A stretch of 64,000 bases of DNA from an uncultured Gammaproteobacteria bacterium (GTDB taxonomy: Bacteria; Pseudomonadota; Gammaproteobacteria; JASBUN01), in NCBI GenBank assembly GCA_963773585.1, contig CAVZBR010000004.1:429941-493940 (forward strand). Direction: 5' to 3'. Under the pieces are notes generated by a model. It was not told the DNA's origin, did no database searches, and worked only from the letters and a program-made list of their open reading frames with translations. Below, piece by piece: positions 48,864 through 64,000 of this stretch. Position numbers and translations under genes: made by a program. Numbering within the stretch: position 1 is the stretch's first letter; every line of letters begins with the position of its first letter.

Positions 48864-50520
48864 GCCGGACGCCGGATTCAGTCCCGCGCTGCAGCGCCGC
48901 CTCCAGGATGCGGAGGAAACCCTGGAGGCGATCCGCGCCGGGGAAGTGGACGCGGTGGTCGTCGACGGCCGCAATGGCCAGCAGGTCTACACGCTCGAGA
49001 GTCCCGACGAGCCCTTTCGGCTGTTCGTCGAGCAGATGCAGGAGGGGGCCCTCACCGTCAGCGCAGACGGGATCATCGTTTACTGCAACCCCTTCTTCGC
49101 AGATCTCGTAGGACGGCCCCTGGAACAGGTGCGCGGTCGCTCGATTTACCCATTGCTCGATCAGGAGTGCCAGGACCGCTTTCGAGCCCTGTTGCACCAG
49201 TCCGCTGCGGGCGTCGCGCACAGCGAGTGCAGTCTGCTTAGCGCCAATGGCGAAACGATACCCGCGCAGCTTGCACTCAACCGGCTTCCCGATGAGGCCA
49301 CCCGGATGTTCGGCATCGTCGTCACCGACCTCGCCGCCCGCGAGCGCGCACAGCAGCTGGATGCCAAACGGCGGACCGCCGAGCAGGCCAACGCCGCCCG
49401 GGACCAATTCCTGGCGGCCGTCAGCCATGAATTGCGCACGCCGCTGAACGCGATCCTGGGTTGGGCCCAGGTGCTGCGTCGGCGCAACGACATTCCCGAG
49501 TCCTTCCAGACCGCGCTGGAGGTGATCGAGCGCAACGCATGGTCACAGGCTCAGCTGATCGACGACCTCCTGGACGTCTCCCGTGTACTTGCCGGGAAGC
49601 TTCGTCTCGAGTTGAAGCGGCTCGAACTGCACGACGTGATCAACGCTGCCGTGGCCACGGTCCAACCGTCGGCGGATGCCAAAGGTGTAGAAATCAGGGC
49701 CGAGATCGGCCCCGGCGATATCCAGGTGCAGGGCGATGCCGACCGACTCCAGCAGGTGGTCTGGAATCTGATTTCCAACGCGGTGAAGTTCACGCCCGAG
49801 GGTGGCGAGGTGTGTGTGCGGCTGTCGCGGCAGGAAGCCTTCGCGCAGGTCGAGGTATGCGACACCGGCATCGGCATCCCTCCAGAATTCGTGCCGCACC
49901 TGTTCGAGCTCTATCACCAGATCGAGGGCGCCACCACCCGCCGCTCCGGCGGCCTCGGACTCGGACTCGCCATCGTCAAGCAGCTCACCGAACTGCATGG
50001 GGGCGAAGTGTGGGCCGAAAGCGGAGGCGAGGGTCGCGGTGCCACGTTTCTGCTCCGGTTGCCCGGAGCCCCTCCTGCCGGCGCAACGGGCCCCGGCAGG
50101 GAGTCGCTCGGTCGCGGCCTCGTCCCGGAACTCGATGGTGTCCGCGTCTTGCTGGTCGAAGACGAGGACGATGCCCGGGAAGTGCTCGGGCAGCTGCTGA
50201 AGAACGCGGGGGCGGAGATCGTCGCAGCCGTGGCCAGCGCGGCTGAAGCGTTGGCCGCCCTCGAGCAAAGCTCGGTCGATCTCCTGGTCAGCGATATAGG
50301 CCTTCCCGGCGTCGACGGCTACGAACTCATCCGTCGGGTGCGGGCCACCGGTCGATCCGAGAAGGATCTTCCGGCCATGGCGGTCTCGGCATTTGCCGCC
50401 GAAGGGGATCGCCGCGAGGCCATGCGCGCCGGCTATCAGGCCCATGTATCCAAGCCCGTGAATCAGGACGAGTTGTACGCGGTCGCCGCGCGCCTGACGG
50501 GTCAGGCAATGAGACGGTAA
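48850..50520 (+). CDS. PAS hybrid histidine kinase with receiver domain
   Basis: EETLEAIRAGEVDAVVV, SHELRTPL, NLISNAVKFT, GLGLGL, VEDE, SDIGLP, KP. Confidence 0.92.
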   Translation: MAVSEPDAGFSPALQRRLQDAEETLEAIRAGEVDAVVVDGRNGQQVYTLESPDEPFRLFVEQMQEGALTVSADGIIVYCNPFFADLVGRPLEQVRGRSIYPLLDQECQDRFRALLHQSAAGVAHSECSLLSANGETIPAQLALNRLPDEATRMFGIVVTDLAARERAQQLDAKRRTAEQANAARDQFLAAVSHELRTPLNAILGWAQVLRRRNDIPESFQTALEVIERNAWSQAQLIDDLLDVSRVLAGKLRLELKRLELHDVINAAVATVQPSADAKGVEIRAEIGPGDIQVQGDADRLQQVVWNLISNAVKFTPEGGEVCVRLSRQEAFAQVEVCDTGIGIPPEFVPHLFELYHQIEGATTRRSGGLGLGLAIVKQLTELHGGEVWAESGGEGRGATFLLRLPGAPPAGATGPGRESLGRGLVPELDGVRVLLVEDEDDAREVLGQLLKNAGAEIVAAVASAAEALAALEQSSVDLLVSDIGLPGVDGYELIRRVRATGRSEKDLPAMAVSAFAAEGDRREAMRAGYQAHVSKPVNQDELYAVAARLTGQAMRR

Positions 50521-50630
50521 TTTCCCCGGGAACTGGTCGCGGTGAGAAGTAGAATTTCCTACCAAAAGGAGATTTTGCGGTCAAGAAATCGCGATTCACA
50601 GACAACCAGATCCTGACGATCCTGAAAGAC
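50518..50630 (+). mobile_element. IS3-family (IS407-like) left-end relic
   Basis: IRL-like TAATTTCCCCGG, AAGGAG RBS, KKSRFTDNQILTILK; visibly homologous to 44750-44866. Confidence 0.7.
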
Positions 50631-50749
50631 GTAGTCGCGAGACGTTTCCGTCGGGAAATTCGTATCCAGCCTGGAAAACAGTTGGAGGATCGCGGAGATA
50701 TGCTGCTAGCGTTATCGCGCTCGTTGTAGCGGTCAGTATCACAAGCTCT

Positions 50750-50809
50750 ACGGAACGCCGAAGGCACACGCCGCGCAATGTTCGCGTCGGCTTTACGAGC
50801 TGGTTAGAA
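50750..50809 (-). repeat. Degenerate attC-like site after higA
   Basis: Minus strand TTCTAAC-CAGCT-CGTAAAGCCGACGCG..CGCGGCG..GGC-GTTCCGT, 8 nt past the higA stop. Confidence 0.4.
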
Positions 50810-50817
50810 CTCGCGCT

Positions 50818-51117
50818 CTATGCGGCATGGGGTGTGACTTCTTTTTCCAACCGGTGATCGAGCTCCGCCTCCGCACGCAAGAGATCGTAACGAAACTGAA
50901 GATTGAGCCAAAATTGCGCCTCCATACCGAAGTACCGGCCGAGGCGCAGTGCCGTGTCGGCGGAAATAGAACACTTGCCTTGGGTAATCTCACTGATACG
51001 GCGCTGCGGCACGCTGATGTCCTTCGCCAGACGGTATTGTGATACGCCCAGAGGACGCAAAAATTCCTCCAGCAGAATCTCGCCAGGACGAATCGGATCG
51101 AAATGTCGCTTAGCCAT
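50818..51117 (-). CDS. higA: HigA-family antitoxin
   Basis: PGEILLEEFL, ISADTALRLGRYFG..AQFWLNLQ. Confidence 0.9.
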   Translation of the reverse strand: MAKRHFDPIRPGEILLEEFLRPLGVSQYRLAKDISVPQRRISEITQGKCSISADTALRLGRYFGMEAQFWLNLQFRYDLLRAEAELDHRLEKEVTPHAA

Positions 51118-51128
51118 GACTCACACCT

Positions 51129-51251
51129 CTAGTGATAATCAACAATCTCCACGTCATGGGCGTCACCAGCTTTCCAAACAAAACAGATACACCACTGATC
51201 GTTGATACGTACACTGTGCTGCCCCGCCCTGTCACCCTTGAGTTTCTCCAC
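51129..51251 (-). pseudogene. higB: HigB toxin, C-terminal half only
   Basis: EKLKGDRAGQHSVRINDQWCICFVW...VEIVDYH-stop; N-terminal half absent. Confidence 0.85.
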
Positions 51252-51278
51252 CGCTTCCTAATTCATTCAACTTTCTGC

Positions 51279-51412
51279 GTATAACGTTGTCCATGAGGGA
51301 ATGAGACGGGCGCGACGCGTCGCAGCGGCAATGGCATATCAGCGATATCTTTTTAGCAGAAATATAAAGGCATGAGTGTCCGAGCCTAGCGGTCCGAAAC
51401 CGGTGGTTAGGC
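51279..51412 (-). repeat. attC-like site (possibly chimeric)
   Basis: GCCTAAC overlapping the DUF1272 stop at one end and CCCTCATGGACAAC-GTTATAC at the other; interior pairs poorly. Confidence 0.45.
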
Positions 51413-51655
51413 TGCATTGTTGCACCCTGCCGGTTTATAAAGACGCTCTGTCGAAGCCGGATACTTGGCCAGTTTGTTTGCTGGGCGACGAGGACGGTTC
51501 TCAAGCTCGCCACCACAGTTTGGGCACTTGCCACCTAATACATTCTCGGCACAAGAAGAACAGAACGTGCACTCAAACGAACAGATTCGTGCTTCAGTGG
51601 ACTCCGGCGGAAGATCCTTATTGCAGCACTCACAGTTTGGGCGTAGTTGAAGCAT
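51407..51655 (-). CDS. DUF1272-family Cys-rich protein
   Basis: MLQLRPNCECC..ICSFECTFC..C..CPNCGGEL..RP; own AAGGAGG RBS. Confidence 0.85.
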   Translation of the reverse strand: MLQLRPNCECCNKDLPPESTEARICSFECTFCSSCAENVLGGKCPNCGGELENRPRRPANKLAKYPASTERLYKPAGCNNAA

Positions 51656-52099
51656 TTTTCTCCTCCTTGTCTTGCGTGCATCGTTGTCTTTGCTCTTGTC
51701 TGGGTCAAGGAGGAGGATAATCTGGAGCTGTTCTTGTTTAGTGTTTCCGCCATGTGCCACGTATTCGTGTCGTAAATGCATCAAGCGATCATGGCTGGAT
51801 CTTGCTTCGGCTGTACCAAAGATGTCCTTGGCCGCTAATGTTATCCTACGATCCTTTGCCTGGGTAAAGCATTTTCCGTAAAGCGCTAGCGCGCCGAACA
51901 TGAGCGCGCGATTGCCCACCGAGTCATGTTGATGCGGATCGAGGCGCGAAAGAATTTCCTGAACGTCCCGAATATCCCGGCTTATTAATGACAGGCCTGC
52001 CACTCGCTTGGCCAAAGGCCCTTCGACGACAACGTAGGGGCATGGCTTTCCGTCGAGCCGTGGACTGAACTCCAGTTTGTAGGTCCCACGATCTTTCAT
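51656..52099 (-). CDS. Hypothetical protein with HEPN-like RxxxxxH motif, running in frame into DUF1272
   Basis: GAGG RBS; helical YGKCF..HDRLMHLRHEYVAH; no stop codon of its own. Confidence 0.5.
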
Positions 52100-52287
52100 T
52101 CTTCACCTCACCGACTAGAACCAGCGACATGGAGCACCGCTTCGCGTCCACAGTATGGTAGTCAGCACACTTGTTGCGATGAGGCGAGTGGCGGGCGAAA
52201 CATCGTCACTTTTAAAGCGAGTGGTCCACGCAAAGCGTGGCCGATGCTTGATAACCTGGTGTGTCTAGAATTCATTGTTATGGCCAG

Positions 52288-52599
52288 TCACGCCGACACC
52301 CTTCGAAGCTTTGTTTCCATCTTTTCGTAATCACCCAAATGGACCCGCATGAGGCTCTTCCAGAGTTTGCCGTGGTTAGGGACGAAGAAATGAAGCAGTT
52401 CGTGGACGATGACGTAGTCCCATATCTCGGCGTCCAAGCTGAGCAATGCATCATTGAAATTCAGGTGACCCGCCGTGGAACAAGACGCCCACTTGTTGTT
52501 CATGTGGCGAACGCCCAGCCAGACGATCTTTACATCCAGCTTATCTGCCCAATACCGGACGCGCTGCTTGAACTCGTTCTTCTTGTCCGTGGCGCGCAT
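52288..52599 (-). CDS. Short YgjP/M48-like zinc metalloprotein
   Basis: KWASCS, YVIVHELLH, NHGKLWK; directly after hsdR. Confidence 0.85.
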   Translation of the reverse strand: MRATDKKNEFKQRVRYWADKLDVKIVWLGVRHMNNKWASCSTAGHLNFNDALLSLDAEIWDYVIVHELLHFFVPNHGKLWKSLMRVHLGDYEKMETKLRRVSA

Positions 52600-52601
52600 G
52601 G

Positions 52602-55600
52602 CTAAATTCGGTCCGCCCGATCCAACAGCGTAAATAACTCATCCACAATCGCGGTGACACGGTCCAGGTCATCGTTCTCGGCAAAGATGGCGAAGGTGAC
52701 CTGCTTGCGCAGTTCGCGCAACGCATTCTCGCTGCGCTTCCAGTTGGGAAAATCCGCGAAAGCATGGCGAATCTTTCGGCTGACCGCCTCCGCATTCTGA
52801 ATCTTCGCATCCAGCAAACTGCGATAGACGAAATACGTCAACCCATCGAACGACTTCTCCGCCTGTTCCTTTTTGCGAGCCTCGTTCGTTGCCACTTCCT
52901 TGAGTAACGCCTCCAGCGCCTCGGCGGTGCTGACCTGGCGGCCTTCGAAGGTTTCCTGCACGGCGCGTGCCCGCTCGGCCATGGCAATCAGGTACGGATC
53001 ATCGCTTTGCTCGTCCGCCAGCTTCTCGATGCTTTTTACTAGGTTGATCACTTTGGTGCCATCGCCGCCCTGCTTGTTCTTGATCAACTCGATGGTGTCG
53101 GCGTTGATCTCAACTAGCTCGCCCACTTGGGAGACCCCATAGCTGCCCACCTGATCCTGGACGAGCTGGTTAGTCTTTCGCTGGAAATCGCGGTCTACGT
53201 ACACCCGTTTTGCATAGGCGTTGCGAACAACGTGATAGATCGATGACAGTGTCCCATAGTCCTGGATGAACGGGCGCAGGAATGCGTCCGGCGAGATGAT
53301 CTCGTAGAGCATCTCGATTTCCTTGTACTCCTTGAAGAATTCCTTGCGTCGCCCGGGATCGCGGAAATGTTCGATGAGCGTCTCCACGTCCTTGTCGTTG
53401 AAATTGCGCTCGATCAGGCCAAGATATTCCGGCGCCTTGGATTCCATCTTGTTCTTGAACAGCACCTTCAGGAGCTTGAGATCCTTGACGATGGCGTTGA
53501 TCTCATCGCTGTCGAACGCCAGCGCCTTTTCCAGCTTGTCGAAAATGCCGACGAAATCGAGCACGAAGCCGTGGGGCTTCACCATCTCCTGCGCCTCGTT
53601 TTCGTAGGGACGGTTCACACGCGCAATGGCCTGCAGTAACGTGTGGTCGCGCATGGGCTTGTCCAGATACATGGCATAGAGCACGGGCGCATCGAAACCC
53701 GTAAGCAGCTTTTCGGTCACGATCAGAACCTTCGGCTTCTCTTCGAGCTTGCCGAAGCTCTTACGGATCTGCCTTTCTTTCTTGGGATCGAGATGGAATT
53801 CCTTCAATAGCGCCGAGTCGTTATTACTGCCGGTATACACCACCTCGGAATACTCCGGCGGAAGAAATTCGTCGAGCGCGTGCTTGTACCGGGCACACGC
53901 TTCGCGGTCCACCCCAACAAGGAATGCCTTGTAACCGAGTGGCTCGACATTCTGGCGGTAATGTTCGGCGACGAACTGCGCGACCTTTCGGATACGCTCT
54001 TCGCCCTTGAGAAAGTTCTTCAGGTTCACCGCCCGCTCGAGGATCTTGTTCAACTCCTCGATGTCGGCCACGCCCTCTGCTTCGGCCAGCGAAAGAAACT
54101 CCTTGTCGAGTGTTTCGTGCGGCACCAGCATCTCGTTGGGCGCGAGCTGATAGTAAAGCGGCAACGTGGTGCCGTCCTCGATGCTGTCGGCGATGGAATA
54201 CTTATGTAGGTAGCCCTGATCGTCCTCGCAGCCGAACGTTTTGAAGGTGCCCTTGCCGTAAACCGTCTTGTCCACCGGGGTCCCGGTGAAACCGAGGAAG
54301 GTCGCGTTCGGCAGACCGGCCATGAGGAAGTTACCCAGATCACCGCCGGTGGTGCGGTGTGCTTCGTCGATGAGCACGTAGATATTCGAGCGCGTATTGA
54401 GGTCCGCCGGCATGTCGCGGAACTTGTGGATCATCGTCACGATGATGCCCCGGTAGTCGTCCTTCAGCAGCTTGTTGAGTCGGGCGATGCTGCTGGCATG
54501 CTCCAGATTGCCCAGGCCGAGCGCGGCCAGGTTCTTGAGCATCTGGTCTTCCAGCTCGTTGCGGTCGATCATCAGTAGGATGGTTGGCTTCTCGGCTTCC
54601 TGTGCGCGGAACAGTCGTTCAGCCGCCTTGATCATGGTGTAGGTCTTGCCGCTGCCCTGGGTGTGCCAGACCAGCCCGCGGGTACGCTTGGGATCGAGCG
54701 CGCGGCCGACGGTCGCCTCCACCGCGCCGGTCTGGTGCTGGCGCAGGACGTACTTGTGCAGCTCCTCGTCCTTTTCGGCAAAGACGATGTAGTCCTTGAG
54801 AAACGACAGGATGTTCGGAATCGAACAGAACGACTTCACCTTCTGTTCCAGACGACCGGGGATATCTTTAACCGCAGATGACGCAGATTGACGCAGATTG
54901 CCTTCCGAAGTGGTTTCATCTGCGCCCATCTGCGCAATCTGCGGTTTCAAAATCTTCCAGTTGAAAATGTTTCGCCGCACCGTATTCCAGCTCACTCCGT
55001 AGGAAAAGCCGATGGCGTCGGTGGCGGAGAAAAGCTGCTGCGACACGAACAGCTCGGGCGTCTCGCGGTGGTAACGGCGGATCTGGTCCACCCCTAGCGC
55101 TATCGCCTCGTCCTTGTTGGCGTTCTTGCACTCGATCACCAGCACCGGGATGCCGTTGATGAGAAAGACCACATCCTCCCGCGTGCCGTAGTGGCCGTTG
55201 TGAAAGGCCCACTCCTCGGTGACCTCGTAGACGTTTTTCGACGGATCGTCGTAATCGATCAGGATCAGGTCGCGCTCGCGGTTCTCCTCGTGATCGAAGA
55301 ACGTGCCCCGGTTGCGCAGTTGATCGACAAAATCGCGGTTGCCGTAGATGTCGGTGTGGAGATGGCGGAACTGGCCGAGCAAGGCGCCCTCGGCCTCTGC
55401 GTAGCGCGGATTGAACTCCCGCACCTTGGCGTCGAGCAGGTCGTCGAAGAACAGCGAGCGGTTTTTGGCGCGCTCGGCGGGTGGCGACCTCGGGATCGAA
55501 CCCGCGCCGCTGCTCGGCTTCCTCGCGGGGCACAAACGTCCAACCGATGGCCTCGGCGTATGCGAGGATGCGGGCTTGGACGGTTTTGCGCTCGCCTGGC

Positions 55601-55605
55601 TTCAT
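52602..55605 (-). CDS. hsdR: Type I restriction subunit HsdR; +1 frameshift near 55486
   Basis: D..INGIP..IECK nuclease motif, HTQGSGKT, DEAHR, GFTGTP, LLTGFDAP, QAIARVNR; N-terminus MKPGERKTVQARIL in an adjacent frame. Confidence 0.92.
54870..54946. repeat. 77-bp palindromic MITE-like insert in frame within hsdR
   Basis: Arms AACCGCAGATGACGCAGATTGACGCAGAT and ATCTGCGCCCATCTGCGCAATCTGCGGTT (25 of 29 complementary) with a 19-nt spacer. Confidence 0.85.
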
Positions 55606-56911
55606 GAATAGGATTTCAGATTCAAGGTGCGCTGAATTTGTTCGCGCACGACATCAGGCACGCCCGCCTTTTCTGCAAACGATCTCCATTTCGATACCGT
55701 CGCCTGCACTTCGGCAACGATCTTCGCAGCGCGCCCCCGTTTCATCGAAGCAGTCTTTGCGCAGGCGTTGAAGTCCTCCATCGTGAAATTGTCGCGTTTT
55801 CCGTTCATCGTCATCTGATGGCTTGCCGTCCACGCACCCGCGGGATTAAAGCTGTAGGTCATATCAAAGGCCGGCGACAGCGACCACTCACCGGATTTAT
55901 TCATCAGGAAGGCAATATTCTTCACGTGGTCATCCTGATTGCGCGCCACGATGTTAAATACCATGCGCCGAAACAGTTGCTCGATGGCCTGCATCGGCAA
56001 CTGCAGTTGCCGCATCACCAGCAACGCCTGCTCGTAGCTATAAGCGCCTGCCATATTGAAATCGTAGTGCGCCAGGGCGCAGAGTGACTGCATGTGAAGT
56101 TTTTCGCCGGCAGCAAGACGATCAAAGCGGCGCGTCATGAAATGCGACCGACCATTCTCTTTAAACAGCCGGCATTCGCTGATTTCAATGCCGCATTCAA
56201 GCGCCATCAGGTAATACGCATACTCGATCACCCCGTAGCCTTTTGGGTCTTCCAGTTCCTTGTCCTTGTTGCCACTAACGCCGTCAAATTTCAGCAGCCA
56301 GTATTCAAATCCCTTGCCGGCTTTGACCTGGCCCGACCGCACTTCATTGGTTTTCGGGTTCCATGCGATGACCGCCTTCGCCCTGCGCGCCACCGGCGGA
56401 TGTGCCCACGCGCAGAATATCCCTTAGCGCATCCTCTCTGCCTTCATCCGCAAAAGACGCCTGCAGGTTATTCCGGTGGGTCAATATCTCCGATGCAAGC
56501 TCAACCAACTTGCCGACCTCAATGTGTGTTGATCTGCTTTGCCCTGGGGCCGATGGCGGGGGCAAATTCCAGCGCACCCATGCCGCGTTCACCGGTATAG
56601 CAAAGCCGCTCAACCGCGTTGAAGGAACCCGGTTGCCGCCCCTGCGATGCCAGCCAGGCATCGATCAGCGCGTTGCCAAATTTGTCGGGCAGCGAGTCGG
56701 CCAGCAGGCCGGGCAGCCCGAGAAAAGTCGGGCGAGAAAGCTCGGGGAAGCGGTACACGCGCCGGGAAAGCGGCATCACAATCGGCGCGACTTGAATACC
56801 GCTTTGCGCGAATTCGGCATCGTATTCAAAGCTGGCGACTTCCTCCCCATCCTGTAGTGAGACAGCGCCGATGGTTTTGCCCCACAGCCTGACTTCGGCA
56901 AGCGTGCTCAT
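55602..56911 (-). CDS. hipA: HipA-family Ser/Thr kinase toxin; two +1 frameshifts (near 56532 and 56386)
   Basis: DSLPDKFG, GMGALEF, SAGGA then RAKA, WLLKFD, RFDR, NQDDHVKN, LSPAFD spread over three frames. Confidence 0.88.
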
Positions 56912-57258
56912 GGCTTCTCATCCCAGCGCCATGGTTTGCCAGTCGCCTTTGCGGCACGTCGACCCGAAGCCCGTTGTCGGACCTTGCCTTTTCGCTTTAA
57001 CAAATCCATCGGTCTGGGCCCGGACTCCGGAATCAGGCTATCCAGCCCTGATGCGGCGTCCAGCACCCGCAGCACACGAACCAGGGTGGCCAACTGTGAC
57101 GTTTGCCCTGCCTCCATACGCTCAAGGGTGCGCTTGGCGATACCCGCCTGTTCGGCCACAGCCGCCTGGGTCAGCTGCAATTCAACCCGGCGACCGGCAA
57201 TCCGTGCGCCCAATTCGGCCAGCACGGCATCATCTGTGAGTAAGCCAGTGATTTTCAT
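56908..57258 (-). CDS. XRE/HipB-like HTH antitoxin
   Basis: LTQAAVAEQAGIAKRTLERMEAG; ATGA overlap with hipA. Confidence 0.85.
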   Translation of the reverse strand: MKITGLLTDDAVLAELGARIAGRRVELQLTQAAVAEQAGIAKRTLERMEAGQTSQLATLVRVLRVLDAASGLDSLIPESGPRPMDLLKRKGKVRQRASGRRAAKATGKPWRWDEKP

Positions 57259-57260
57259 AG

Positions 57261-57444
57261 TCGTAATATATTGCGAATATGTCGGCTAAGTTGCCATATA
57301 TCGTCACATATTGCGATATATAGCTTATTAATTGAATTTCGTCAAGTCGCAATAAATAGCGAGATATCGGCTGTATTAGTCATTATTCGCAATCTGTTAC
57401 GATCTATTCGGTTATCTCAGAGGCCATATCGACATATAAAGCGC
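57261..57444. promoter_or_regulatory. Five TCG-N10-CGA operator-like boxes upstream of hipBA
   Basis: Boxes start at 57261, 57301, 57347, 57387 and 57429 (the last ends CGC); AT-rich region. Confidence 0.65.
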
Positions 57445-57526
57445 TCTATTTGTCGTGCATTCTCTGTTGTGTCGCTGAAGAGGCCTTTTTGTCGCGAATG
57501 CCCGTCACGACGATCCTTTCGTCGCC

Positions 57527-58180
57527 TCATGCGTCTCGAACAGGAAAACCGTCAAGGTAGAGGCCGCCCCGACGGCCAGACTCACCTGGCGGGCGGTCCG
57601 CCCGGTTGCCGAGCCGTGCGAACAGCTCCGGCATTTCGCGGTGGTACCGGCGGATCTGGTCTACCCCGAGGGCAATCGCCTCGCCGTTGTTGGCGTTCTT
57701 GCACTCGATCACCAGTACCGGGATGCCGTTGATGAGAAAAACCACATCCTCCCGTGTGCCGTAGTGACCGTTGTGAAAGGCCCACTCCTCGGTAACTTCG
57801 TAAATGTTATTCGACGAATTGTTGTAATCAATCAGGATCAGGTCGCGCTCGCGGTTGTCCTCATGATCGAAGAACGTGCCCCGGTTGCGCAGTTGCTCGA
57901 CGAAGTCCCGGTTGCCGTAGATGTCGGTGTGGAGATGGCGGAACTGCCCGAGCAAGGCGCCCTCGGCTTCTGCGTAACGCGGATTGAACTCCCGCACCTT
58001 GGCGTCGAGCAGGTCATCGAAGAACAGCGAGCGGTTCTTGGCGCGCTCGGCGGGCGGGACCTCGGGATCGAAGCCGCGCCGCTGCTCGGCTTCCTCGCGG
58101 GACACAAACGTCCAACCGATGGCCTCGGCATATTCGAGGATGCGGGCTTGGACGGTTTTGTGTTCTCCGGGTGTGGGCAT
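57527..58180 (-). pseudogene. hsdR: Truncated second copy of the hsdR 5' end
   Basis: 57619-58172 closely matches 55046-55600; homology stops after PELF. Confidence 0.9.
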
Positions 58181-58186
58181 GGATGC

Positions 58187-60188
58187 CTAGTGCTTCCATT
58201 TGGTGACAACTTGATTCACCGCATCGATCAGCTTACGGAATGAAGCGACTGTGTCCTTGTCGACAGCGGTAAGATCGCTCTTGCCGAGTTCCGTCATGAT
58301 TCGCTTTGCGACTCGCCCCTTGTTGAAAGTCCCGAGTCTCGCCTTTCCAAAGGCGTCCTCGACTCGGTGAACCAACGACTTAGTTCCGGCCGTCTTCTGT
58401 TCGAGCGATAGGGTTTTCCCGGCCAACTCCTTGGAATATGCTTCCTCCACTTTCGCGATATAGTAGGTTTCGCCGAAGAGGTCCTCCAACGCGCACGGTT
58501 TCGAGCCAATGGTATCTCCAACCATGACCACGAGCTTCTCGTCCAAAATCCACTGATGAACGAGTTGTTCAAGCGCCTGCTCACCTGCGGGATCGGACTC
58601 GAGTAGCACCGCCACGTGCAATTCTTGCCCGTGAAGTATTGTGCCAACATAGGCGACCTTGCTTGCACCGCCGGCTGGCGTAACCACCAAGTCCGCATCT
58701 AGCCCGTGCTGACCGGCTTCCTCGAATAAAGTCGAGAAAGTCGTGAGAAACCAAAAATCATCAACGCCCTCCACCACAAGGTTGTATTGGCCAACGAAGA
58801 GAGACTGGCTCCATGACATCCCGAGTGCAGCTTGCAGCGTGAATCGAGCGTCTTTGTCAGCGGTTGCCCAATTGGTATGAATCTTTGTCCCTTCTTTCTG
58901 AATATCTTCTGCAACGTAGATGTTGTCCAGTCGCTTGAAGTCGATCATAAATGGCAAGTGCGTCGTATAAACAAGCTGATTTTCTTTCGCATAGGCCTTC
59001 ATCCTCTCAAGCAAGTCCCTCTGCGCTGCGGCGTGGAGATGGAGACCTGGTTCGTCCAGTAAGATTATTGCGTTGCTGAAGTTGCCCTCGGTTTCGTACA
59101 TGAAGTGCATGTCGAAGGAAAAGAACCACTGAAAACCCTTTGAGCGCTCCTCTAGCAGAACTAGTCCCTTGTCGTTTTGATCCTTCACGAATGTCATAAA
59201 ATGCTGTCCGTCAGCTTGAAACACGACCTGATATCTACGCTGAGACCATCGCTCTGCAATCAATTCTGTCAGGGTATTGCTTGCATCGTTCATATCGAGC
59301 ATTCGCTGCTCTCTATCCTCTTCATTCCCTTTTGACACCTCGTCATCCAAGTCCAAGCCGGCCATATTCATGATCATGATGATCGTTTCTTCTTCGGGCT
59401 TGAGCTTCTTCTCCTTCTTATGCTTTTGCACCTCATCCAGTTGCGCCGACCCAACAAACGTCCGGTAGTCATCCATATAGACGAAGGTTGGCATGTGTTT
59501 ATGGACATAGTCGACGACACGCAGAAGAGGCGTCGTCTCAATCTCTTCGACAACGTCATCAATTAGGGTGATGAGGGGAGTGATCGCATTCCGATCTTGT
59601 TGCTGAGGAGGTTCTGTCGGCGCTACAAACGTGGGAAGCGTTTCTCTCAAATCGCGAAGCCCCTCCACCGCACGGCCGCTTCCCCCGCCGTTTCGGACTT
59701 CTTCCAACAGAGTCGAAAATGTAACCGCAAATTGCGTCTTGAAGTGATCAGAAAATGTCTCCGGAAGATTTTCCAGCAGCTTTTGGAGAAGATCCGCAAC
59801 CCACTCCACGGCGTGCTCGGTGCTGGGATTTTTGGGTGAAAATTGATGCTTGTATCTTCCCGCGTAATTCCAGCTTACCTCGACCGCCTCAATGCCTTTG
59901 GCGGATTCATGAAGCGCAGCAATCTCTGCTTGCTCCTCTGACGAGAACGAGAATACGGCTTCAACCACGACCTTCTCAGGGCTCTTCTCTTTCCTGCGGC
60001 CGCTCGGCCATTCCCGGTCGATGTTGTATCCGGTATTGTGATAGGGATTGAGACGCAACAGCGCCTTGAGGAACGATGTTTTTCCGGATTCGTTCCGGCC
60101 TACGATCACGGCGATGTCGTCAAAGTTCACCCATCCCGAATCGGTGATGCAGCGATAGTTTTGAATTCTGCATTTTTTCGAGTTTCAT
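58187..60188 (-). CDS. OLD-like ABC ATPase-TOPRIM nuclease; +1 shift in an A6 run near 60175
   Basis: MKLEK then CRIQNYRCI.DSG, GRNESGKT, RSKGFQWFFSF, LLDEPGLHLH, TTHLPF, VVEGVDD; ATGA overlap with the hsdS stop. Confidence 0.8.
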
Positions 60189-61543
60189 ATGGCTCTTCTC
60201 TTAATTATGTTGGAGTCCATGGCAACGGAGGGTAAATCAAGTTCGTGAACGCGGGTCTTCGCAGTCATCAACTCGTGAAGGAGGGTGCGGAACAGGTTTT
60301 GTAGCGTATTCCGTTTCGAAGTCGCCAGATTGTGCTTCGAGTCGATCAATTCGAGATGTGCGACAATCTCGTCTTGCTGCTCCATCGGCGGGAGAGGTAT
60401 CCGAGTATTTTTCACTGCTCCCACATTGAAATGCTGCTGGGCTAGCCCAATCTTCCCCGCCTGAACTTGAACTTTGGCGGCGTCTGAGTTGAAGAATCGG
60501 CTCAGGTAATGGCTGCGCAGTTTCGCCCTATTGGGCCGGACGAAAATCAAATCTATGCAGTTGCTGCCGTCGAACTCCGGCGGAACGACGCACGAGGTTC
60601 CAGGGTAGCCGGTCCGCACAATCAGAACATCTCCCGCCGACAACTTTGATTTCTTTACCGGGCCGTTGTTCGCCTCTTCGGATATATAAACCATCGGCTC
60701 AGGCTGAATCCGATCTTCCCTGACGTTCTGTGAACGAAACGCAGGAACGCCATCGGCCACGTAGTAGCTGGATGGCTTCACAACGATCCCGACGCTGATC
60801 GAATCGCATACATCCTCGCACCGCACCACCTCCCAGCTTTCGGGGACGGGGCCGATTGCGGTTTGTTTTTGTGGTTCGTTGCGGAGGCCTTCGGTGAAGA
60901 GCTTGTGCATGATGGCCTTTTTCAGCTCGGTGGTGCTCTGGATGATCCGCTCCTGCGCTTCGATCGCCCGCTGTACCGTCGAAAGGATATGCGCGATCTT
61001 CTTCTGCTCGGGGAGTGGGGGGAGCGGGATCAAGCGGTCACCAAGAACCGTTTTGCGTAACCGCTGCCGTCCTGTGCTTCCTTCCATCTTGCCTGCAAGG
61101 TCGGAGCGCACTTCCGGGTGCAAGAGATAGAAGAACAGGAACAGCGTGTCCGATTCTTCTTTCCGGCCACGTATGGGGATAACCTCGGTCGTGGCATAGG
61201 CGAAATCGCTCTCGATATCGACGATGGCCTGTTTGCCGTTCTCGAATGAGGGCGTGATCTTCGCGACCATGAGGTCGCCGTTTTCGACGTAGGTGCCGCT
61301 TCCGAGCTGGGCCAAGGGCTTTGGCGTGAATACAGACACGTGAATACGACCCAACGGAATTTGATCCATTGGGAAGAACGGGATTTCGTCGCCATTCTTC
61401 GAAAGGTCGAGACCACGAGGCTTACCAGTAAAGTCAAACGACTCGGCGATCGGACCGAGCTTCCAATCGGAAGGAAATTGGAACTGTTCGATCTTCATAC
61501 CCCAATCTTCTCCTGAATCTCCTTTAACACCGTAACTGAACAT
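60185..61543 (-). CDS. hsdS: Type I R-M specificity subunit (start may be 61498)
   Basis: Two TRDs; IPLPPLPEQKKIA and IPLPPMEQQDEIV; GPVPESW linker. Confidence 0.92.
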   Translation of the reverse strand: MFSYGVKGDSGEDWGMKIEQFQFPSDWKLGPIAESFDFTGKPRGLDLSKNGDEIPFFPMDQIPLGRIHVSVFTPKPLAQLGSGTYVENGDLMVAKITPSFENGKQAIVDIESDFAYATTEVIPIRGRKEESDTLFLFFYLLHPEVRSDLAGKMEGSTGRQRLRKTVLGDRLIPLPPLPEQKKIAHILSTVQRAIEAQERIIQSTTELKKAIMHKLFTEGLRNEPQKQTAIGPVPESWEVVRCEDVCDSISVGIVVKPSSYYVADGVPAFRSQNVREDRIQPEPMVYISEEANNGPVKKSKLSAGDVLIVRTGYPGTSCVVPPEFDGSNCIDLIFVRPNRAKLRSHYLSRFFNSDAAKVQVQAGKIGLAQQHFNVGAVKNTRIPLPPMEQQDEIVAHLELIDSKHNLATSKRNTLQNLFRTLLHELMTAKTRVHELDLPSVAMDSNIIKRRAI

Positions 61544-61553
61544 AACTCAGCAA

Positions 61554-61859
61554 TCATCCTCCGCTCCTTTCTCCACCTGCAATCTGTTCCAGTTTCTGCA
61601 AATCCTCTGCATCGGCCTGCCGGGCCATGGTCCTGTAGCGCTTGCCGTCTGCGGCAGTTGTCAAGGAATCCCTGACAACTGAATCATCGATCAACTCCCC
61701 GTCTTTAAAGATATTTTTGGCGTGGAGGCTGACGTTCTGCTTGGTGGTCTGGAAGAGTTCGGCGATTTCAAGCTGGGTGAGCCAGACGGTCTGGCCATCG
61801 ACGCGGAGATCGAGCCGGGTGCGGCCGTCGTCTGAGGTGTAAAGAATCAGTTCGCTCAC
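61554..61859 (-). CDS. RhuM-like protein with a large in-frame internal deletion
   Basis: TVWLTQLEIAELFQTTKQNVSLH..NIF..GEL..TAADGKRY joined directly to a short tail; 101 aa. Confidence 0.7.
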   Translation of the reverse strand: MSELILYTSDDGRTRLDLRVDGQTVWLTQLEIAELFQTTKQNVSLHAKNIFKDGELIDDSVVRDSLTTAADGKRYRTMARQADAEDLQKLEQIAGGERSGG

Positions 61860-62296
61860 GCTTCGCCTCTTGATTGAAGGTTAACCGCAGATGGCGCAGA
61901 TTTGCGCAGATGGCTCACTGACTGGATGAAGCGTTTGTAGTCGAGACGCAGCGTGGCGAAATTGATCAGGAGGGCGCGCTCGAAACCGGTGGCTTTGAGG
62001 TAGTGGAGTGCTTGGGCGGATTCGATATCGGTGAGAGTCCTAACCGCCTTGGGTTCGACGATAATTGAGCCATAGCAGACGAAATCCGCGCGGTAAGGCG
62101 TGCCCAAAGTGCATCCCTTGTAGAGAACGGGGATCGAGTGCTCGCGAGTGAATGGAATGTCACGGTGGGCAAATTCGATCTCCAGGGCATCCTGATACAC
62201 CCCTTCCAGAAAGCCATTTCCCAGCTCCCTATGCACCTCCATGGCCGCGCCAATAATGGCGTACGTTTCCGGGTCTCTCTGTGAATCTGCGTTCAT
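61856..62296 (-). CDS. GxxExxY protein (PD-(D/E)XK-like nuclease family)
   Basis: IIGAAMEVHRELGNGFLEGVYQDAL, YRADF..IIVEPKA, YLKATG..LLINF. Confidence 0.9.
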   Translation of the reverse strand: MNADSQRDPETYAIIGAAMEVHRELGNGFLEGVYQDALEIEFAHRDIPFTREHSIPVLYKGCTLGTPYRADFVCYGSIIVEPKAVRTLTDIESAQALHYLKATGFERALLINFATLRLDYKRFIQSVSHLRKSAPSAVNLQSRGEA

Positions 62297-62313
62297 CTGC
62301 GCCAGATGCGGTT
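61883..62313. mobile_element. Candidate element: GxxExxY ORF between 29-nt inverted CGCAGAT-triplet arms
   Basis: Arms at 61883-61911 and 62285-62313 share the architecture of 54870-54946. Confidence 0.6.
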
Positions 62314-63922
62314 ACACTCCGATCTTCTTGAGGATGTCCCGGAGCGCCTTGTCCGTCTCCCGCGCCTCGGCTTCTACGGCCCTCAGTTCCTCGACGATCT
62401 CCGCAATCGGCCGATAGGTTTCGGCATCTGAGGTATGGATGTAGCGGCTGGGGGAGATGTTGTAGTCGTTCTTCTTCAGCTCAGCGTGATCGACGATGCG
62501 GCTGAGTTTTTCCTCTTCCTTCCAGCCGATGAGGGTGTCGGCGATGCGCTGGATACCCGCGCCGGGGATGAAGTTCTTGGGGTCGCCCTTTTCAAAGACC
62601 TGGCTGGCGTTGACGAGGAAGACCTTGCCCTTGCGCTCCTTCCGCTTGGCCTTGTTCAGGAACAGCACGATGCCCGGGGCGGTGGTGTTGTAGAAGAGGT
62701 TTTCCGGCAGGTAGAGGACGCTCTCGATCAGGTCGTGGTCGACGAACCACTGGCGGACGGTCTTTTCCTTGTTGGTGCCGGCATTGCCCGAGCCGCGGGA
62801 GGCGGCGCCGGTGTCGAGGACGACGGCAGCGCGGCCTTTGTCATTGAGGCTGGCGTGCATATGCTGGACCCAGCCCCAGTCGGCGGAGGCTTTGCCGGGG
62901 AAGCCCGCGCCGGCGGGGAAGCGGTCGAGTTCGTCGTTGTCGTAGTCGGCCTCGGTGAACCAGTCCTGGTTCCACATGGGATTGGCGACGACGCGGTCAA
63001 AGGTGCGGAGTTTGCCCTGCTTGTTGCGGAATTTGGGATTTTTGAAGGTGTCGCCGATCTCGATCTCGCCTTCCATGTCGTGGATGATCATGTTCATGTT
63101 GGCCATGGCCCAGGTGTCGGCGGTGTATTCCTGGCCGTAGAGCTTGAGCGGGGCGACGGTGCGCTTCTTGCCTTTGGCCGCCTCTTCCATTGCGATCTCG
63201 CATTTGATGAGCAGGCCGCCGGAGCCGCAGGTGGGGTCGTAAATCTCCATGCCGGGCTCCGGCTGGAGCACCTTCGACATGATGGTGCCGACTTCCGGTG
63301 GCGTGTAGAACTCGCCGGCGCTCTGGCCGCCGCCCTCGGCGAACTTGCGGATGAGGTATTCGTAGCTCTTGCCGATGATGTCGGCTTCGACGTCCTCGAG
63401 TCCGAGGCGTTTGGTGCTGATCGCTTCGATCAGGTTGGAAAGTCGGTCGTCGTCGATATCCCGCTGACCGTGGGTGGTGGCGTTGAAGTCGACGCGGTCG
63501 ATGATGCCCTGTAAACGGGGGTTTTGCTTTGCGATGGCGCGCATGTGGGTGGTGACGCCTTCGCCGATCTTGTCGGAGAGTTTGCGGATGATGGACCAGA
63601 CCGATTCTTCCGGGTCTTCCGGCAGCAGGGGGAGATAGAAGCGCACCAGCTTGTGATCGGCCTTGACGAACTGGAAGGCCTTTTTGCGCGAGCCGACTTC
63701 GGCCGCGATGCGGTTAACCTCGTCATCGAAGACATCGCACAGCCGCTTGGTAAAGATCAACGGCAGGATGTAATCCTTGTACTTCGGTGCATCTTTGGCA
63801 CCACGGATGGAGCAGGCCGCATCCCAGATCCAGGATTCGAGCGATTTTCCGTTGGTGCGTTCGATGCCGTTGGCAGCGGTTTTCCTGGTCGATTTTTTCT
63901 TTTTGGCGGCCACTTCTCTCAT
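62312..63922 (-). CDS. hsdM: Type I R-M N6-adenine methyltransferase
   Basis: GEFYTP, YDPTCGSGG, YGQE, VANPMW, LPENLFYNT. Confidence 0.93.
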   Translation of the reverse strand: MREVAAKKKKSTRKTAANGIERTNGKSLESWIWDAACSIRGAKDAPKYKDYILPLIFTKRLCDVFDDEVNRIAAEVGSRKKAFQFVKADHKLVRFYLPLLPEDPEESVWSIIRKLSDKIGEGVTTHMRAIAKQNPRLQGIIDRVDFNATTHGQRDIDDDRLSNLIEAISTKRLGLEDVEADIIGKSYEYLIRKFAEGGGQSAGEFYTPPEVGTIMSKVLQPEPGMEIYDPTCGSGGLLIKCEIAMEEAAKGKKRTVAPLKLYGQEYTADTWAMANMNMIIHDMEGEIEIGDTFKNPKFRNKQGKLRTFDRVVANPMWNQDWFTEADYDNDELDRFPAGAGFPGKASADWGWVQHMHASLNDKGRAAVVLDTGAASRGSGNAGTNKEKTVRQWFVDHDLIESVLYLPENLFYNTTAPGIVLFLNKAKRKERKGKVFLVNASQVFEKGDPKNFIPGAGIQRIADTLIGWKEEEKLSRIVDHAELKKNDYNISPSRYIHTSDAETYRPIAEIVEELRAVEAEARETDKALRDILKKIGV

Positions 63923-64000
63923 TCTCTTGATATTTGATACGTGGTGATTATTTGGTGTCTATTTTGAGTGAAGGCCATGCCGCGGATTCTGGGTCCACTT

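Follow-up and report, generated by a model that had tools for sequence, protein, structure and literature searches.

Within a 64,000-nucleotide (nt) stretch of the genome of an uncultured Gammaproteobacteria bacterium (GenBank assembly GCA_963773585.1, contig CAVZBR010000004.1, positions 429,941 to 493,940 of the forward strand; hereafter the window), we observed a 77-nt palindrome inside hsdR, a gene of a type I restriction-modification operon, and a second pair of the same arms around a GxxExxY family gene 7 kb away. An inverted-repeat search of the window gave the hsdR palindrome a layout of 29, 19 and 29 nt with arms that were 86% complementary, each arm containing AACC followed by three CGCAGAT heptamers at 9-10-nt spacing (the first letters of the arms are AACCGCAGAT). 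The motif CGCAGATNNCGCAGATNNNCGCAGAT was found three times in the window, at 54873-54898 (+), 54918-54943 (-) and 61886-61911 (+), with 0.00 matches expected from 100 shuffles, and the fourth arm (62285-62313) had one degenerate heptamer. These observations agree with the original prediction, made from the letters alone, that the palindrome shares the arm architecture of the gene-bearing element but encloses only 19 nt. A scan of the 3.84 Mb of this genome (G000) for triple CGCAGAT arrays returned two arm pairs only, one in the hsdR frame and one around the GxxExxY gene, and every spacer differed between the two. RNA folding of 97 nt around the insert gave -47.9 kcal/mol compared with -23.0 +/- 3.2 for 200 shuffles (z = -7.8). 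An Rfam scan of positions 50000-64000 returned a single chance match to a microRNA hairpin, which scored 24.4 bits where the gathering score is 82.

An in-frame insertion in hsdR

The hsdR frame was free of stops across the palindrome, reading NIFNWK-ILKPQIAQMGADETTSEGNLRQSASSAVKDIP-GRLEQKVKSFC, as had been predicted. The encoded protein scored 466.5 bits against TIGR00348 (cut-off 284.55) with the domain order HSDR_N, SWI2_SNF2, T1R_D3, and the insert corresponds to residues 195-226, in the linker separating HSDR_N from SWI2_SNF2, which places the added peptide between the nuclease and helicase regions where it had been expected. The ortholog in a same-genus genome used for comparison (G002) was 96-97% identical, yet had DEAV at the place of these 32 residues, and the DNA and protein alignments with it gave a net gain of 28 residues. 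Among 120 HsdR database homologs, which were ranked by similarity to the insert-containing query so that the proportions of inserts are biased upward, 75 had four residues at the site, 25 had a peptide from the same kind of palindrome, 11 had other inserts and 9 had inserts containing PF01797. A search with the flanking region yielded 80 metagenomic hsdR loci; 67 had 12 nt at the site, and the 13 longer segments all had lengths that were multiples of three (13/13). On these alignments, with four residues in the G002 ortholog and in 75 of the 120 homologs against 32 in G000, the 77-nt palindrome is shown to be a true in-frame insertion in the linker of the HsdR nuclease and motor domains, as first proposed; an equally long segment common to all homologs was not found.

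We considered whether the palindrome is built to be stop-free and rejected this, with three of six frames open in the 77-mer compared with 2.08 in shuffles (p = 0.35). The mean number of open frames in 53 short palindromes was 1.85, compared with 1.25 in shuffles. Since the palindromes are not notably stop-free, their survival in frame looks like a selective filter and not design, and coding DNA would retain only copies that are in frame and without stops. An alignment with EcoR124I HsdR placed the insert in an unaligned gap after the NW(A)K motif, the sole structural hint obtained, and the 28 extra residues would form a tolerated, probably disordered loop. The G000 copy of hsdR also had one additional base at 55485 relative to G002, a +1 frameshift, and may be a pseudogene or reflect an assembly error.

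The flanks of the insert were compared with G002 to trace how it reached this genome. The 5' coding flank was 97-100% identical up to the WK codons and the 60 nt on the 3' side were very divergent, with identity of ~95% again beyond. Residues within this 3' patch were R, S, N, I and S in G000, as in insert-bearing alleles, and K, A, Q, V and A in G002, as in empty alleles. Public-run contigs of relatives stopped matching the window at 54797 and restarted at 54954, their loose ends carrying the empty allele (DEDV-GKLEAK). The divergent flank together with these breakpoints shows the import of a patch of ~156 nt (insert plus 3' flank), most simply gained from an insert-bearing hsdR allele by homologous recombination and not by fresh transposition. 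A local origin by transposition of the copy that lies 7 kb away was not borne out, since the spacers differ and the ~60-nt foreign 3' flank matches insert-bearing alleles elsewhere. The AAGAT noted in the original prediction is indeed present on both minus-strand flanks, but it did not hold as a target duplication: the sequence in empty alleles is TGGAAG-GACGAG, and AAGAT is missing from other filled alleles, which along with the differing spacers leaves a local hop with target duplication unsupported. No target-site duplication was found at hsdR when empty and filled alleles were compared, nor any clear direct repeat at the trpD|trpC junctions described below. Joints skipping the insert were not seen in four public runs, all of which were kept as contigs in which rare excision variants are not visible. 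Insert-bearing HsdR alleles were labelled Candidatus Accumulibacter, Kiritimatiellia and Chthoniobacterales, and hsdR alleles that were 83-91% identical bore labels of different phyla; the occurrence of insert-bearing alleles in records of such different groups shows that the allele travels widely.

Table 1. Features of the window and loci used in the comparisons (positions are those of the window)
Feature	Position	Strand	Remarks
hsdR, main frame	52602-55535	-	TIGR00348; HSDR_N residues 38-176, SWI2_SNF2 residues 267-486
3' flank imported with the insert	54798-54857	-	GRLEQKVKSFCSIPNILSFL; very divergent from G002, matches insert-bearing alleles
Insert in hsdR	54858-54953	-	96 nt = 32 codons, ILKPQIAQMGADETTSEGNLRQSASSAVKDIP; empty alleles have 12 nt = 4 codons (DEAV/DEEV)
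Gene-less palindrome	54870-54946		Left arm 54870-54898, centre 54899-54917 (19 nt), right arm 54918-54946
hsdR, 5' region	55485-55605	-	Conserved first 40 codons (MKPGERKTVQARILAYAEAIGW...) in another frame
HipA_C open reading frame (ORF)	55602-56393		Between hsdR fragment and hsdR
hsdR N-terminal duplicate, 217-residue ORF	57527-58180	-	HSDR_N 83.7 bits; 90% identical to main-gene residues 11-164; also in G002
AAA_15/AAA_21 ATPase	58187-60130	-	Weak PtuA and retron-effector similarity; between hsdS and hsdR fragment
101-residue ORF	61554-61859	-	GTG start overlaps GxxExxY stop (GTGA); no Pfam family
Gene-bearing element	61883-62313	-	Arms 61883-61911 and 62285-62313 around GxxExxY ORF 61856-62296
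hsdM	62312-63922	-	TAA stop overlaps terminal AA of arm
HsdR homologs with RAYT insert			P0036, P0040, P0043, P0049, P0059, P0073, P0087, P0105, P0109
HsdR homologs with second-site palindrome			P0003, P0004, P0022, P0031, P0042, P0044, P0110
trpD|trpC loci compared			L225 and L274-L295, genus g104

A dispersed palindrome family and its landing sites

An exact triple-arm scan of one genome per GTDB species returned at least 120 stretches. Among the matches listed, these belonged to Verrucomicrobiota, Planctomycetota, Chloroflexota, Acidobacteriota, Cyanobacteriota, Nitrospirota, Bacteroidota and Proteobacteria as well as three archaeal records, an inverted partner was observed within 3 kb for 70 of 142 arms and within 250 nt for 60 of those 70, and the arms were located mostly at gene ends or in intergenic positions. 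Long-distance arm pairs (>190 nt) in these loci were tried as elements and rejected, as they enclosed only ordinary genes or nothing recognisable. Five genomes contained 169, 65, 35, 4 and 2 arms, respectively, with 0 for a reversed control pattern. In a mangrove metagenome run (X2), contigs reached a depth of 260-530 over 54851-54904, a segment that takes in just one of the arms, and their loose ends were of many kinds; the arm is thus a high-copy dispersed repeat in that community.

Insertions within genes were not confined to hsdR. An Anaerolineae record (L034:4507-7815, minus strand) contained a dnaE with an in-frame insert of ~48 residues in HHH_6; the match to this profile of 90 positions was extended over 135 residues, and outer CACGGAT arrays nested an inner CGCAGAT array. 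Further internal in-frame cases were an archaeal DNA methylase with a solo arm and a BT4734-like protein. These scans identify the 77-nt palindrome as a gene-less member of a dispersed palindromic family, in which ACC usually stands before three heptamers (approximately CRCRRAK) per arm. The heptamer spacing in family arms equals about one helical turn.

At the same codon position of hsdR we also observed palindromes built from CACGGAA, CACGAAT and CGCAGAG, each with one heptamer type in both arms, starting GAACC[GA]C and ending G[CT]GGTT. Nine HsdR homologs (Table 1) had, in frame at exactly the site of the palindrome, a 238-330-residue insert with PF01797, the family of the IS200-like transposases associated with repetitive extragenic palindromic (REP) sequences, known as RAYTs. 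These RAYT copies had palindromic arms of their own, unrelated in sequence and translating as GGHSCPP / GQECPPS. The aligned alleles show repeated occupation of the hsdR site, with RAYT genes and no fewer than four heptamer variants among the occupants. The right junction read ...P-GR in 44 of 46 filled alleles, across all insert types, whereas it was ...V-GK in nearly all of the 75 empty ones (GKLE in 72, GNLE in 2, GRLE in 1). An extra motif, CEPHGHS, was common to some filled alleles of different heptamer types, and the common right junction along with this motif suggests that elements have replaced one another within a single allele lineage, in addition to arriving anew. Close to the N-terminus of HsdR, a second site, bounded by REEAExRR and SLFFDD, had CGCAGAT-type palindromes in 7 of the 120 homologs, three of which were empty at the first site. 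Three further homologs had REP-like inserts at this second site.

The GxxExxY gene and its link to the arms

The GxxExxY ORF of the window encodes 146 residues, with its ATG inside one arm and its C-terminal tail HLRKSAPSAV encoded by the other (C-terminus ...SHLRKSAPSAVNLQSRGEA). The protein scored 138.8 bits against TIGR04256 (cut-off 35) and 130.5 bits against PF13366 (PDDEXK_3; cut-off 22). Its ~120 closest homologs (query P0002), 68-84% identical, start with (MTQ)MNAD and end with NHLRxSAxSAV, and, as these arm-encoded peptides show, the closest homologs sit in the same arms. Within 45 GxxExxY sequences E31, E81 and K83 were invariant and D71 was conserved in at least 90%. An AlphaFold2 model had a mean confidence (pLDDT) of 86, with a core above 90 and a disordered arm-encoded tail (residues 125-146). 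Foldseek matched this model to Cas4 SSO0001 (E = 5.7e-4, template modelling score 0.5), lambda exonuclease and the Hjc resolvase, with the PD-(D/E)XK homing endonuclease I-Bth0305I among the weak matches, and a search for a solved sequence relative returned none. With its invariant catalytic residues and the PD-(D/E)XK matches of the model, GxxExxY looks like a putatively active minimal PD-(D/E)XK nuclease. The literature searched, which took in few subscription journals, contained nothing on GxxExxY mobility, on a link to repeats or on these arms.

We scanned a 301-genome phylum sample for the GxxExxY family and for exact triple arms. The family was observed in 55 of the 301 genomes, including 24 of 29 that had arms compared with 31 of 272 that did not. 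By arm type, 20 of 20 genomes with CGCAGAG arms and 9 of 14 with CGCAGAT arms were GxxExxY-positive. Inverted arrays of two or three heptamers flanked 23 of 31 GxxExxY loci in this sample, and 3 of 5 loci from other genomes, the heptamers being CGCAGAG, CACAGAG, CGCAGAT, CGCGGAT, CACGAAG, CACAAAG, CGCAAAG and CGCGAAG, mostly with ACC before. In family f42 a single genome (G292) had the gene, and this genome alone had arms (105). Arm type changed 17 times on a maximum-likelihood tree of 37 GxxExxY proteins, compared with a shuffled mean of 23.5 (0 of 200 shuffles were as low), and the T-ending arms formed one clade with 92/96 support. Insert-bearing hsdR and GxxExxY may also share contigs elsewhere, as hinted by equal contig sizes of 15038 and 21236 nt in both lists. 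Arms and GxxExxY are strongly, though not invariably, associated.

In genus g104 the junction of trpD and trpC was observed in three states, with 5 genomes pristine (an ATGA overlap and no arms), 10 having arms plus the gene and 5 having remnants; arms and GxxExxY gene are gained or lost together at this place. At the filled junction the trpD stop overlaps the GxxExxY ATG, and the heptamers of the arms differ among species at this same locus. No equally clean empty site was found for the G000 GxxExxY element: G002 is without the element, but everything between its hsdM 3' end and hsdS has been exchanged, which leaves no element boundary to be read. We also looked for full-length GxxExxY in frame within host genes and rejected the candidates, as the long upstream frames were Arg/Pro-rich alternative frames and the trpD junction was an ATGA overlap and not a fusion. 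At two loci (L270:1212-2351, plus strand; L230:772-1803, minus strand) the GxxExxY frame runs without a stop into downstream sequence that may represent precorrin-8X methylmutase (cobH), which it resembles.

The operon around both copies reads hsdM, GxxExxY, a 101-residue ORF, hsdS, an AAA ATPase, an N-terminal fragment of hsdR, a HipA-like ORF and hsdR (Table 1), with a stretch of ~1.1 kb (56394-57526) separating the fragment from the HipA_C ORF. The N-terminus of the 101-residue ORF may resemble that of RhuM-type proteins, which are often located between hsdM and hsdS. G002 has no gene between hsdM and hsdS, which share an ATGA overlap. Just upstream of hsdR, G002 has a PF05635 gene for a 23S rRNA intervening-sequence protein (L212:11447-11818, 94.7 bits), a further small cassette of this operon at a place where G000 has nothing.

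Origin, proposed mobilisation and rival explanations

We regard it as probable that the palindrome is a member of this family which entered hsdR of G000 in frame by import of an allele, with GxxExxY as the inferred mobiliser of the family. For the action of the enzyme itself our confidence falls a little short of an even chance: the GxxExxY nuclease would bind the heptamer arrays and would mobilise its own element and also, acting in trans, the palindromes without a gene, in the way that RAYT mobilises the REP doublets called REPINs. More tentative again is the general form of this proposal, in which GxxExxY proteins (PF13366/TIGR04256) would be dedicated nucleases of bacterial and archaeal heptamer-array palindromic mobile elements, the PD-(D/E)XK counterpart of RAYT/REPIN, with gene-less copies colonising operon junctions and, in frame, hsdR and dnaE, and overwriting one another at hsdR.

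Several observations weigh against these proposals. Among the matches listed, GxxExxY homologs were found in 0 of 120 arm-bearing 8-kb loci. Two genomes with 65 and 4 arms (G337 and G340) were without GxxExxY, as were 5 of the 14 phylum-sample genomes that had T-type arms, and G341 had three GxxExxY genes with G-type or no arms, yet 35 T-type arms in the genome. The genome counts are phylogenetically non-independent, most positives coming from family f67, and the clustering of arm types on the protein tree is explicable by co-inheritance, since linked DNA would cluster even without protein recognition. G000 holds two copies only and thus gives no sign of element activity. The literature covered by our search reports no nuclease activity or DNA binding for GxxExxY. 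For the host protein, the AlphaFold2 HsdR model was too poor for the question of a surface loop (53-row alignment, mean pLDDT 48.7, residues 91-271 all <50), and given the frameshift at 55485, the evidence that a working enzyme tolerates the insert is only indirect and comes from full-length homologs that carry it.

The likening of the palindrome to Rickettsia palindromic elements (RPEs) in the original prediction was sound, as it is an in-frame, stop-free palindrome missing from close orthologs. PMC3733652 defines REPs by a GTAG or CGTC head and describes intragenic REPs of both kinds, in frame in genes that are probably still functional, often those of DNA metabolism, dnaE among them; Additional file 3 of that paper lists intragenic REPs and could bear on the novelty of the present cases. 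The resemblance to RPEs and intragenic REPs would lie in short palindromes in frame in genes, here hsdR, dnaE and a DNA methylase. They differ in that the arms described here have three heptamers without the GTAG/CGTC tag, extend over many phyla and archaea, and are associated with a PD-(D/E)XK gene, whereas GTAG REPs pair with RAYT. We know of no partner gene for RPEs. Similar to the REPIN/RAYT system, there are inverted doublets in tens to hundreds of copies and a low-copy gene flanked by the same repeats, and the type of repeat tracks the protein clade; the partner, however, is a ~120-residue PD-(D/E)XK nuclease (the candidate mobiliser) and not an HUH Y1 transposase. Miniature inverted-repeat transposable elements (Correia/NEMIS, Nezha) are likewise small and non-coding, share inverted repeats with a gene-bearing element and show presence/absence polymorphism among close relatives. 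The palindrome has such terminal inverted repeats around a short non-coding unit, and the same arms flank GxxExxY, but that gene belongs to no known transposase family, no target-site duplication was detectable, and the copy number was two arm pairs in G000, compared with 35-169 arms in other genomes. The intervening sequence (IVS) elements of 23S rRNA with small ORFs (PF05635) are also small and selfish-looking in permissive spots, with a protein fold other than that of GxxExxY. IVS stems are cut by RNase III.

Of the alternatives, the one that survives best, although we consider it unlikely, is that the palindromes are targets and GxxExxY a homing-type endonuclease gene that invades the palindrome centre and splits its recognition site, gene-less copies being uninvaded sites spread in some other way. 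The location of the gene exactly between the arms, with start and stop in or beside them, would fit this, as would the gene-less palindromes that vastly outnumber the genes and occur in genomes without GxxExxY, the I-Bth0305I match and a gene in G338 that adjoins a complete palindrome. No gene remnant was visible in the centres of gene-less copies (the G000 insert and the other filled hsdR alleles), which is also what uninvaded sites would show; the derivation of the hsdR palindrome from the gene-bearing element, as put forward in the original prediction, is therefore conjectural. The trpD|trpC loci point the other way: the 5 pristine sites had no palindrome, the 10 filled ones had arms and gene together, and among the 20 loci compared there was no ortholog pair in which one member had the palindrome alone and the other had the gene as well.

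It is considerably less probable that no dedicated enzyme is involved and that the palindromes spread by host recombination, hairpin replication slippage and horizontal allele transfer, the link to GxxExxY reflecting common permissive sites such as operon junctions and restriction-modification loci. The G000 copy did come, on the evidence of its flanks, by allelic replacement; hsdR alleles of high identity carry labels of different phyla, and 23S-IVS-type and RAYT genes are found in the same operons. Left unexplained are the 169 near-identical arms in one genome against 0 for the control, the use of a single heptamer throughout the six repeats of a copy, and the several independent insertions at two hsdR sites and in dnaE. 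A REP/REPIN mobilised by RAYT, with GxxExxY as a bystander, is marginally less probable again: the PF01797 genes with their own arms in frame at this site in 9 of 120 hsdR homologs, 6 PF01797 matches in G000 and the intragenic REPs of DNA-metabolism genes described in PMC3733652 speak for it, but CGCAGAT arms were found at 0 of 20 PF01797 loci from five arm-bearing genomes, so that RAYT is not the better mobiliser candidate, and in addition neither GTAG nor CGTC heads the arms, those of the RAYT copies in hsdR are unrelated, and the presence of arms tracks GxxExxY.

Our preferred explanation therefore remains a palindromic family with GxxExxY as its putative mobiliser. Most palindromic repeats of the in-frame type (those of Rickettsia, REPs) have no known mobilising enzyme, and a precise pattern, in which each arm has ACC and three CRCRRAK heptamers, connects gene-less palindromes from numerous phyla of bacteria and archaea with a single small uncharacterised nuclease family, for which the association with the arms points to a possible function. 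The hsdR alleles show that a palindromic insert can pass from one genome to another when alleles of a horizontally shared gene recombine, and that palindromic elements of several kinds, whole in-frame RAYT genes included, have repeatedly landed in the same linker between two HsdR domains. If the proposal is true, this single linker site would record successive element families.

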